Virus record (IMG/VR): IMGVR_UViG_3300011947_000003
Span: 1,487-65,486 of that record
Length of the DNA stretch: 64,000 bases
Source: a virus
Taxonomy: Duplodnaviria; Caudoviricetes
Strand: one strand, 5' to 3'
Positions 45,991-55,128 of the stretch are shown here, in pieces. How positions within the stretch are numbered: the first letter of the stretch is position 1; each line of letters starts with the position of its first letter. Under the pieces are notes generated by a model, which had not been told where the DNA came from, ran no database searches, and was given only the letters and a program-made list of their open reading frames with translations. The position numbers and the translations under genes were made by a program.

Positions 45991-46620
45991 GTTATGTCCG
46001 TAATCAATTATCATATGTGTATGACACCAGTATTGTGCATATATAGTCCTACTCATGCTGGACGCTGATATATAGGTATGAGAATGTTGGTTGATAATAC
46101 CAGCGATACGAAAAAATAAAGTGCGATCAATTTCCAGTCCTGAAAAATCGTGATGTGATCCCTATTAAGTTAGGTTGCGGTGATCACCAACATAGACGAA
46201 TCGATTGCATGTTGTATAGTGTAATCGGAATTGAATAAAACTATCCCGTATCTGAAACTGTTTTATTCAATTTGCCATACTAACCGTAGTCTATGAGAAT
46301 GAAGAAGTGGTTCTTTATTCGCTTGTCCAACAGCCGTGTTAAATGTTGGAAGATGTACTTCCTATGGCAAAGGAAGCAACGGTCATGAACCGTTTGGAGT
46401 ATCCATGCAACAAGCCAGAAATGGTGATGTAGACATTGTTAGGTCTGCTGTGAATATGAATGATAGATAAAATTCATTCATTACAAATCAAAAATATATA
46501 GATGATAGAGATATAAAAGTAAATATATCCCAATTTCAACAGAAATCATCAAAAATATTATTGGTCTGATCACAGATGTAATGGACTGAAGTTGTGTCTG
46601 AAATTTGATAAAACATATTT
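45991..46620 (+). ncRNA. large structured ncRNA, ROOL-like (ends approximate)
   Basis: No ORF of 60 aa or more in any frame; more than 12 consecutive stems with G-U pairs favouring the + strand; CAUAGAC/GUCUAUG, ACGGUCAUGA, CAGAAAUG and CAAUUUCAAC in the order recalled for ROOL. Confidence 0.7.
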
Positions 46621-52313: not shown

Positions 52314-52573
52314 TAGATTTCATCCTTGTGAATCATGAGTGAATAGTATTTATTATCATCCTTTCGACGGATAGGAGTTCTTGTATAACACTCCAATTTC
52401 GGATTGCGCTTGAATTCATAATCCTCATTATCAGCTTTATAAATGAATTCACCCTTTCCATACACGGATTGAATGTACTTTTTCACTTCTTTAGCAGTAG
52501 CAAATGACTTCTGATATTCATTTGGCGCATACCATTCACCACAACGCGCCAATAATACATATACTTCGCTCAT
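52313..52573 (-). CDS. hypothetical protein
   Basis: 86-aa ORF, AGGA RBS. Confidence 0.55.
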   Translation of the reverse strand: MSEVYVLLARCGEWYAPNEYQKSFATAKEVKKYIQSVYGKGEFIYKADNEDYEFKRNPKLECYTRTPIRRKDDNKYYSLMIHKDEI

Positions 52574-52581
52574 AATAATTC

Positions 52582-53030
52582 CTAAAGATAAAAATGAATA
52601 ATCTTAATGTCTGGTGTGGATTCGTTGATGATTTTTTCGATTTGTTTCCAGTCACCACCTGCAAGCCCCGCCCCACACTTGGAATACCAAATATCAATCC
52701 TTGGTCTTTATAAGCATTATTCAAATTCAGAAACACATTTCTAATTGCATCATAATCAGCATTACGTTTACCATACCCATAGTTGTATTGGGTATATGCA
52801 TTAATAATGCTGCCATTTTCGGTTTTAGCTACAGTATAGTTACCCAGCTTATTTTTATCACCTTTAATTGTGCGTGAATCTACAATAGATGCTTCTGGAT
52901 ATTGATTTTTGATACTTAATGCAATCCCCTTACCGTGATTATTAAAGCAGTTGCAACCATGAATCAGTATATCTACCATTCCATTTTTGAATGCTTTAAT
53001 CAGATCACCCTTAACACTTTGAATAATCAT
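52582..53030 (-). pseudogene. macrodomain (ADP-ribose hydrolase) gene with a 1-nt frameshift in a G-run
   Basis: KGDL, HGCNC..N.G.GIA, YTQY; adding one G at 52671-52674 restores GIPSVGAGLAGGDWKQIEKII ending at a TAG at 52582. Confidence 0.8.
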
Positions 53031-53042
53031 ATATGAACCAAT

Positions 53043-53312
53043 TTGACCAATTTGTGTATACATGATACATTATCCCTACCAGATATGCAAATGAGCAATA
53101 AGGAATTTATTATGTCAAATCAAGAAGTTTTAGAGTGGAAAAACACTAAAATAACACGATTTATGGTAGAAATGGCTATTTCACGCGCTGAAGGTCGCAA
53201 GCATGAAGGGATTGATATTAATGCACTGTATAAAGCTGATGCATCAATGCAGCATAAGTCATTAAAAAGTTTTGTAGAAAGTTATAATCGAAACAAAAGA
53301 TCAATATACTGA
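53043..53312 (+). CDS. small hypothetical protein
   Basis: Probable start MSNQEV after an AAGGA RBS; terminator follows. Confidence 0.55.
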   Translation: MTNLCIHDTLSLPDMQMSNKEFIMSNQEVLEWKNTKITRFMVEMAISRAEGRKHEGIDINALYKADASMQHKSLKSFVESYNRNKRSIY

Positions 53313-54199: not shown

Positions 54200-54470
54200 C
54201 AAAAAAGGTGAACATCCCTTATAGCTGTGTAGTCAAGAACGATAGAACCAATAAAAACTCTATACGACTACAATTTTAATCTTTCGCCTTTAGCCTTTAA
54301 GCTTTTAATCAATTGATCTTTAAGCTTTGAACTTTCACCTTTTAGCTTTTATTAGCTATAATGTTATAGATTCAATGGCTAGGTACTATACACCGTACCT
54401 AATGGCGTGATTTACCGTTTTTCAGCTATGAAAAATGTTCACCTTGGATGATGCTTAACCGAAGTTAAAC
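54200..54470 (-). ncRNA. unnamed structured RNA with a 9 x AAAG heptamer array, 3' of the DUF6847-like gene
   Basis: 11-bp closing stem 54205-15/54435-45; 7-bp stems 54221-27/54423-29 and 54228-34/54266-72; cUUCGg hairpin over the stop codon; U-run after the closing stem. Confidence 0.75.
54281..54349 (-). repeat. 7-nt period AAAG repeats (4+5 units)
   Basis: CTTT on + at 54281, 54288, 54295, 54302, 54318, 54325, 54332, 54339, 54346. Confidence 0.9.
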
Positions 54471-55055
54471 ATCAAATTTCAGAGTCGGGTTCAATTCTGA
54501 CATAACAGCATCGAATTCCGATTCGAAATATTCGATTTCAGCACGAATCTTTTCGATTTCATCATCATAAGCATGGATTTTAGGTTCCTGCTTTTTCTTA
54601 TGTTCGATAAGAACCGCAACATCATCTTTATCAGACTTAGCTTCTAAAGCATTAAGTTCTGCATCAAACGTAGCTTTCGCACGTTTGTATTCTGTTGTAG
54701 CATTATTTCGATCCAAAATCAACTTTTCAAGGATCGAACGTTTTGTTGGGATAACGTATAACTTATAAGCCAAGGCATCTTGAATTGTCATTTCACCATT
54801 ACCAACGTCAATTTTGGTAGTAGCATTCACAAAGTTAATACCTTGACGAAGGCGGAATGCTTCATTAACTTTGTCGTTAAGTGATTGGTATGCTTTTTTA
54901 GTAGCTTCCTGTTCAGTCTTAACAGTCTTGCCCTCAAGTGTCTTATTTGACACTTCAACAAACGCAAACTTTACGTGGCGCGAATTAGTAACCGCTTCTT
55001 CCAAAAGTGACTTTGACTTAGATAATGCGCGGCTTACTGAAATTTGATTTGTCAT
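54465..55055 (-). CDS. DIP1984/DUF6847-like helical coiled-coil protein
   Basis: ISVSRAL..K...LR..I..VNATT.I......MTIQDAL..K...IE.FE.EFDAVMSELN pattern. Confidence 0.65.
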   Translation of the reverse strand: MTNQISVSRALSKSKSLLEEAVTNSRHVKFAFVEVSNKTLEGKTVKTEQEATKKAYQSLNDKVNEAFRLRQGINFVNATTKIDVGNGEMTIQDALAYKLYVIPTKRSILEKLILDRNNATTEYKRAKATFDAELNALEAKSDKDDVAVLIEHKKKQEPKIHAYDDEIEKIRAEIEYFESEFDAVMSELNPTLKFDV

Positions 55056-55100
55056 ACGTTACCTTCAATTTTAATTCATATTTGATCGTTTATGTTGGTA

Positions 55101-55128
55101 AGTATACACTAATACCAACTGATGTCAA
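55101..55128 (-). promoter_or_regulatory. sigma70 promoter for the DUF6847-like gene and RNA
   Basis: TTGACA-16-TATACT. Confidence 0.6.

Follow-up and report, generated by a model that had tools for sequence, protein, structure and literature searches.

A conserved structured RNA with a seven-nucleotide repeat register accompanies a DIP1984-like gene family in distantly related phages

Here we describe a gene-RNA pair in a 64,000-nucleotide (nt) stretch of DNA from a T4-type tailed phage (Duplodnaviria; Caudoviricetes; positions 1,487 to 65,486 of IMG/VR record IMGVR_UViG_3300011947_000003), referred to below as the window. All coordinates of the pair lie on the minus strand of this 64-kb window and are collected in Table 1. 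The locus opens with a sigma-70-type promoter that resembles the early promoters of phage T4, continues through a short predicted mRNA leader into a gene for a helical protein of 196 residues, and ends in a gap of 352 nt before the next gene; this gap holds a putative RNA domain that is closed by pairing of its two ends and carries nine AAAG repeats. A first-pass annotation made from the sequence alone had pointed to the dedicated promoter, to the helical protein and to a stop codon buried in a UUCG hairpin, and all three were found as described. Equivalents of the promoter (TTGACA-16/17-TAnnnT, 60-80 nt upstream of the start codon) are present in eight of ten relatives, with one conserved early-type promoter per module. 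Only 7 nt separate the hairpin at the stop codon (P0) from the start of the closing stem (P1), too short a distance for the RNA to have a promoter of its own.

Sequence comparison among relatives indicates that the downstream element of about 245 nt is a real, conserved and folded RNA. Metagenome assemblies yielded thirteen proteins that are 58-97% identical to the window protein, and their contigs were compared; the gap behind the gene measures 280-430 nt in all of these metagenome relatives, and nine such gaps were aligned, yielding 45 consensus pairs. In this alignment the consensus pairs are kept in 95.3% of cells, and 26 of the 45 have changed on both sides, against 12.7 +/- 2.4 in column shuffles (none of 500 reached the observed number) and 3-7 with slid partners. 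The window domain itself has a minimum free energy (MFE) of -77.8 kcal/mol, compared with -52.9 +/- 4.5 for shuffled sequences (z = -5.55).

The individual helices are consistent with this picture. The closing stem AAGGUGAACAU/AUGUUCACCUU, first read as 11 base pairs (bp), extends to about 22 bp, joins strands some 220 nt apart and runs into five U's; a run of four to seven U's is kept in all nine relatives. The AGGUAC/GUACCU hairpin (P3) and the UGUAGUC/GACUACA arm (P4) also proved to be real and covarying. A second long-range stem, put at 7 bp in the first-pass annotation, shrank to a GCC/GGC pairing of 3-4 bp (P2) without covariation. The junction that follows the 5' strand of P1 and the loop of P4 (GAGUUU..AUUGG.UCUAUCGUUCUUG) are both near-invariant among relatives, and two pairings between them, AACGG/UCGUU or AAAC/GUUU, fit all nine sequences and are themselves invariant. 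Either pairing would form a candidate pseudoknot, with the junction as tertiary partner of the loop. In the relatives L009, L012 and L013 the P0 hairpin lies about 50 nt past the stop codon, which argues that P0 belongs to the RNA or its processing and not to translation.

P1 contains three U-G pairs, of which two are invariant and one occurs in six of nine sequences; these would be C-A mismatches on the opposite strand and thus place the RNA on the strand of the gene. The same pairs speak against an element acting at the level of DNA, such as iterons, an origin or protein-binding repeats, and the remaining evidence also bears on its companion explanation, a mere long 3' untranslated region or terminator with no function of its own. 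Tandem repeats and a terminal U-run are what such explanations would lead one to expect. However, the compensatory changes preserve RNA helices whose strands lie up to 240 nt apart, a 7-bp period misfits the DNA helical repeat, and a plain terminator has no need of 245 conserved nucleotides. We find a DNA-level or untranslated-region explanation scarcely credible.

Along the A-rich strand of the domain, AAAG occurs nine times at spacings of 7, 7, 7, 7, 16, 7, 7 and 7 nt, which is the layout of five and four units that had been noticed at first reading. Nowhere else in the window, on either strand, do three or more AAAG follow one another at 7 nt, and the seven adjacent pairs observed at this distance were reached in none of 5000 dinucleotide-preserving shuffles (mean 0.05). 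In most lineages the array falls into two parts, with about 8-13 nt or a small hairpin between them; in the window, the GGC of the third unit of array B is the 3' strand of P2. A profile of 206 units from 19 loci, for which the selection of units was partly circular, has the general form yAAAGyU, with y or A at position 1, A at positions 2 (97%), 3 (93%) and 4 (74%), G at position 5 (78%), y at position 6 and U at position 7 (87%). The initial view that the register is kept without the sequence therefore holds for the 7-nt period and fails for positions 6-7, where yU is conserved besides AAAG.

Table 1. Features of the gene-RNA pair in window coordinates, in order of transcription.
Feature	Position	Strand	Description	Basis
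Promoter	55101..55128	-	sigma-70-type (T4 early-like), TTGACA-16-TATACT	11/12 consensus positions match
mRNA leader (predicted)	55056..55094	-	conserved 5' motif ACAUAAA(G/C), resembling a single heptamer unit	
Protein gene	54465..55055	-	196 residues, helical; phrog_1491, DIP1984/DUF6847-like fold	open reading frame, profile matches, AlphaFold2 model
P0 hairpin	54453..54470	-	GUUUAAC-UUCG-GUUAAGC; covers the stop codon UAA (54467-54465)	compensatory changes in relatives
RNA domain	54201..54445	-	about 245 nt, closed by P1, with U-run	MFE z-score, covariation, covariance model
P1, 5' strand	54423..54444	-	pairs with 54206-54227	22 pairs, 15 changed on both sides, 97% of cells paired
A-rich junction	54407..54422	-	GAAAAACGGUAAAUCA, near-invariant	alignment of relatives (invariant A50-G55)
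P3 hairpin	54380..54401	-	UAGGUAC-loop-GUACCUA	7 pairs, 5 changed on both sides
Array A	54316..54350	-	five units: AAAAGCU, AAAAGGU, GAAAGUU, CAAAGCU, UAAAGAU	AAAG spacing, unit profile
Spacer	54307..54315	-	9 nt, within the palindrome AUCAAUUGAU	small central hairpin with flanking unit bases
Array B	54272..54306	-	four units and one degenerate: AAAAGCU, UAAAGGC, UAAAGGC, GAAAGAU, UAAAAUU	AAAG spacing, unit profile
P4 arm	54228..54272	-	UGUAGUCG...UGACUACA	8 pairs, 5 changed on both sides, 100% paired
P1, 3' strand, and U-run	54201..54227	-	3' strand at 54206-54227, U-run at 54201-54205	covariation

Several other interpretations of the units were considered and set aside. Reading them as lysine codons that pair with the anticodon of transfer RNA (tRNA) for lysine conflicts with the third A, which is not conserved in some lineages. 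As mimics of the T-loop (GUUCAAA) they would call for a C at position 1, found in just 25% of units, and both the period and the motif misfit the A-R-N triplets of Hfq and the GGA motifs of CsrA.

The RNA is linked to one protein family across distant phages, and the linkage is complete so far. That an uncharacterized RNA is tied to the adjacent DUF6847/DIP1984-like gene had been proposed from the window alone; all homologues that we examined, some with as little as about 30% protein identity, have an array RNA directly downstream, and the stems covary among the close relatives that were aligned. A long unannotated gap with a stem-closed domain and a heptamer array lies behind the gene at 24 loci of at least 14 lineages. 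The loci drawn on were the window, the Logan contigs L004-L013 and L019-L022, and the phages Acj9, Lazarus, PVP-SE1, KKP_3711, T5_ev212, AH06, D-1873, Jenst, UNO-G1W1, AM3, BCP78 and Ceto.

A covariance model built from close relatives only matched L021 (E 4e-11), Lazarus (E 1e-8), the T5-like phage KKP_3711 (E 9e-6), Acj9 (E 7e-5), PVP-SE1 (E 1.4e-4), Jenst (E 1.5e-3) and BCP78 (E 2.3e-3). Of five complete phage genomes of 114-170 kb, four had their top or sole match beside the gene, and the fifth, Jenst, has a truncated 108-nt match elsewhere that scores slightly above the gene-adjacent one. The window's own 65-kb record contains a single match.

The protein family is widespread. A full HMMER scan gave 217 cluster representatives at 50% identity, and tblastn with three family members hit 84, 693 and 726 phage records. 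Among the carriers are T5-like Demerecviridae, Seunavirus and other Vequintavirinae, Acinetobacter Twarogvirinae, Pseudomonas Otagovirus, Vibrio Cetovirus, Bacillus Tsarbombavirus, Lactococcus AM3, jumbo Erwinia phages and a Clostridium botulinum phage. In plasmids, the search returned only large phage-plasmids of Clostridium, Clostridioides and Bacillus and no small Acinetobacter plasmid with the gene. Megablast and blastn of the locus DNA against phage records gave no match, and the window protein alone found no relative in a search of viral contigs.

The RNA is uncatalogued in Rfam for the lineage of the window, and the pair is undescribed in the searchable literature. Searched at gathering thresholds, the window and eight related loci gave no match to the array RNA in Rfam 15, as the first-pass annotation had supposed, and 14 related loci gave nothing relevant at E <= 0.05; no description of the pair was found in literature on DUF6847, DIP1984, RAGATH-27 or heptamer and tRNA-cluster noncoding RNAs. 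RAGATH-27 (RF03100), an orphan candidate small RNA of 86 positions with no functional or protein association, aligned to the window at 17.1 bits (E 7.8), far from its gathering threshold of 76.1, and did so at 54309-54381 on the plus strand, opposite to the RNA, of which it covers at most one third. None of the 14 related loci reached E 0.05 with this model on either strand. Judged by eye in this one weak alignment, the reverse complement of the RAGATH-27 consensus contains AAAAGAC, UAAUGAA, UAUAGU and UAAAGU at a spacing of about 7 nt beside a hairpin, and RAGATH-27 may perhaps describe, in part and in antisense, the array that a sister lineage carries.

We next consider the protein. It matches the profile of phrog_1491 over its full length (E 3.2e-27; residues 1-196 on profile positions 1-209 of 211), and DUF6847 (PF20935; E 1.2e-4, 22.5 bits) and DIP1984 (NF038048; E 2e-4, 21.5 bits) at scores below their curated cut-offs of 27 and 70 bits. 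It shares a fold with the DIP1984/DUF6847 proteins, and it is about 45 residues longer than the DIP1984 family. AlphaFold2, run with 62 homologues, confidently predicts long helices and three short strands (predicted local distance difference test, pLDDT, 94.4). The crystal structure 3KDQ, of the DIP1984 family, was matched by profile at E 1.8e-5 and ranked top of 48,161 chains in VIA-align (Z 10.2 over 149 aligned residues; next best 7.7). Because Z values under about 13 mean little for helical bundles, the assignment of a 3KDQ-like fold relies mainly on the sequence profile. A single-sequence search of the PDB returned no match, a Foldseek search with the model none at E <= 0.001, and the ESM Atlas unnamed clusters only. 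Homologues are widely labelled "tail fiber protein" (PHROG 1491, RefSeq); the location among early genes or in tRNA regions and the helical-bundle fold leave this label without support, and for phrog_1491 it looks wrong.

A repeat RNA beside a small protein gene, with a single promoter for both, recalls type III toxin-antitoxin systems, in which the RNA would neutralize a toxic protein encoded alongside it. The match with such systems ends there: known type III antitoxins have units of 34-45 nt, compared with 7 nt here, the RNA lies 3' of the gene and does not precede it, and the protein is a 3KDQ-like helical bundle and not an endoribonuclease of the ToxN/AbiQ type, so that the pair does not qualify as ToxIN-like. 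The best match in PADLOC was negligible (PbeC, E 0.0015), and the module occurs in virulent phages of many families. We therefore regard a toxin-antitoxin role as very improbable.

In Acj9, Lazarus, PVP-SE1, Jenst, Ceto and D-1873 the gene-RNA pair sits among tRNA genes. In the RNA of Erwinia phage AH06, a stretch at L015:2253-2317 forms a permuted tRNA-like module consisting of a T-arm, a loop-closed acceptor stem and a D-arm; it matches the model of YrlA, a bacterial Y RNA (RF02553), at 37.3 bits (E 9.5e-7 in a search of 411 nt), and ARAGORN called no tRNA there. YrlA RNAs, which associate with Rsr/Ro60, resemble the array RNA in that a stem made by both RNA ends closes a set of modular inner elements, and the genomic ties to tRNA and RNA-repair genes add to the likeness. 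The YrlA-type module and the siting of copies in tRNA clusters suggest that the pair serves quality control of tRNA or RNA, or helps the phage to evade defences.

These observations also bear on a scaffold similar to Y RNA, in which the protein would bind the closing helix instead of the array, and the heptamer strand or tRNA-like module would tether enzymes of tRNA processing or RNA repair, as YrlA does with Rsr and PNPase. A closing helix with conserved U-G pairs that surrounds variable inner modules is consistent with such a scaffold, as are the AH06 module and the copies in tRNA clusters. On the other hand, the YrlA model matches the tRNA-like module of AH06 only, one lineage, at a score well under its gathering threshold of 69 bits, and finds no match in the window, where neither such a module nor a Ro60-type protein was seen. 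Y RNAs are not known to carry heptamer arrays, and the sequence of P1 covaries freely, unlike a sequence-specific protein site. We consider this scaffold distinctly unlikely.

The unit motif drifts by lineage, being AAAG in the window, AAUG or AACG in L021, AUAG in AM3 and UAAG in Ceto, which makes a co-evolving phage protein a likelier partner of the array than a universal host factor. This drift, which occurs even within Gram-negative hosts, also counts against a decoy or sponge, in which the RNA would capture a host RNA-binding protein, ribonuclease or RNA-targeting defence effector that recognizes A-rich single-stranded motifs, and the linked protein would not read the heptamers and would help in another way, for example with folding, stability or delivery. 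Sponges such as CsrB and CrcZ typically have multi-site arrays, the promoter is of the early type, the protein family is not basic, and copies of the pair lie in clusters of tRNA genes, with which phages counter defences that target tRNA. However, the module is found in Gram-negative and Gram-positive hosts, so that a single host target would have to be universal, and a pure sponge needs no strict gene linkage. A sponge is in our judgement rather unlikely.

Based on these observations, we suggest that the pair probably constitutes an undescribed protein-RNA particle. A strong early-type promoter would yield one transcript with the gene for the 196-residue protein and, directly behind it, a stable structured RNA composed of a long end-to-end closing helix, an A-rich junction, two covarying arms and five plus four yAAAGyU heptamers. 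The strict 7-nt register would act as a ruler that provides one binding site per heptamer, the equivalent sites being occupied by several copies of one protein, most likely the product of the linked gene, and the resulting ribonucleoprotein would probably act on tRNA or RNA metabolism, whether in quality control, in repair or in protection against RNA-targeting host defences. We favour this ruler model while rating it somewhat short of an even chance, for whereas the RNA, its fold, its conservation and its tie to the gene are solid, we infer the binding of protein to array, its stoichiometry and the cellular role. A more specific version, with DIP1984-like copies arranged one per heptamer on a platform similar to Y RNA that serves RNA quality control or protection from defences, and with autoregulation through the leader, is possible and rather doubtful. 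The observations of the first-pass annotation are thus confirmed, and its interpretation, an oligomer or filament of the adjacent protein on the heptamer array among other options, is partly supported.

Known proteins that read RNA in register offer useful comparisons. TRAP and HutP form rings that read regularly spaced trinucleotides, and HutP sites have the form UAG-N4, with a period of 7 and two sets divided by a spacer. The window array resembles both in its short motif, strict register and variable spacers, and the two-set layout of HutP parallels the five plus four units. TRAP, invoked in the first-pass annotation, is a fair functional analogy, and HutP is nearer in geometry. The differences are also clear: TRAP and HutP sites are cis-acting mRNA leaders that control termination, the rings are rich in beta structure, and motif and unit number differ, whereas the window array is a stand-alone closed domain 3' of a gene whose product, the putative partner, is a helical bundle. 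The 196-residue protein has no Pfam match to TRAP or HutP, and the array is not of their type.

A further parallel comes from the leader of the mRNA. The operator of T4 gene 32 is an unstructured A/U-rich tract with UUAAA-type repeats beside a folded element; gp32 binds it cooperatively, with a site size of about 7 nt, and thereby regulates its own synthesis. In the present family, the leader motif ACAUAAA(G/C) is conserved after the -10 box in relatives and was not found after the other consensus promoters of the window. Family leaders are enriched for one to three units of the array type: leaders with heptamer-like units occur in 5 of 14 lineages, compared with 4.5% of 202 control leaders (binomial p 2.5e-4), and the comparison of all loci with controls gives a Mann-Whitney p of 3.5e-6. 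In L004, L006 and L011, two or three units stand in register and extend to the ribosome-binding site. Such units hint at an autoregulatory logic similar to that of gene 32 and would fit autoregulation by the protein that binds the array, which we regard as a lead only. Unlike the gene 32 operator, which is a 5' leader bound by a single-strand DNA-binding protein, the window array is a separate RNA domain, is associated with another protein family and also occurs in phages that are not T4-like.

Several points weigh against the ruler model. Its chief weakness is the protein: the family is mildly acidic (median isoelectric point 6.0) with an acidic C-terminal helix, which is atypical of a classical RNA binder, and only four basic positions are well conserved. 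The sole meaningful relative by both sequence and fold, 3KDQ, itself has no assigned function. The array strand, at first described as unpaired, is predicted by the thermodynamic ensemble to leave its A's mostly open and to pair often through its G-y-U parts; the mean unpaired probability of the array is only about 0.45. In the window itself the leader unit is weak, and no tRNA gene lies within its 64 kb, although the contig is estimated to be 17% of the genome. The linkage of gene and RNA could also mean a joint function without direct contact.

The genes around the pair in the window include small early genes, DHFR, a DksA/TraR zinc finger and a weak macro-domain protein. The last of these, at 52536-53063 on the minus strand, is a conserved neighbour two to three genes downstream and is also present in L007, L010 and L020. 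Genes for a 2',3'-cyclic phosphodiesterase (57B) and for a protein resembling peptidyl-tRNA hydrolase lie close to the pair in Acinetobacter relatives. The macro-domain and phosphodiesterase/hydrolase neighbours fit an RNA-repair neighbourhood.

Other RNAs were encountered close to the pair or elsewhere in the window. The noncoding-RNA islands of Jenst and D-1873 stack several orphan motifs. In Brevibacillus phage Jenst, a skipping-rope RNA (67.6 bits; L017:2134-2211) lies 10 nt behind the gene and before the array RNA, and a BsrG-family match (119 bits; L017:2669-2943) follows further on; in Clostridium phage D-1873, a drum RNA (47.7 bits) is found further downstream at L016:2910-3017. The 800-nt stretch behind the array RNA of Acinetobacter phage Lazarus contains a tRNA by Rfam (50 bits; L002:2878-2948) that is unannotated in the GenBank record. 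The window also has a region of about 600 nt free of open reading frames at 45991-46620, described as ROOL-like at first reading, for which Rfam gave no match at gathering thresholds.

Roughly 700 sequenced phages carry the pair, among them the classical model T5 and many that are employed against Salmonella, Acinetobacter, Klebsiella and Bacillus; despite this spread its RNA has stayed unannotated and its protein has been labelled a tail fibre. The association of a 245-nt RNA, a 7-nt ruler and one protein family in phages of Gram-negative and Gram-positive hosts points to an unstudied basic function in infection, probably in tRNA or RNA metabolism. Few phage noncoding RNAs have a known partner, and the module could extend this group by a new class.

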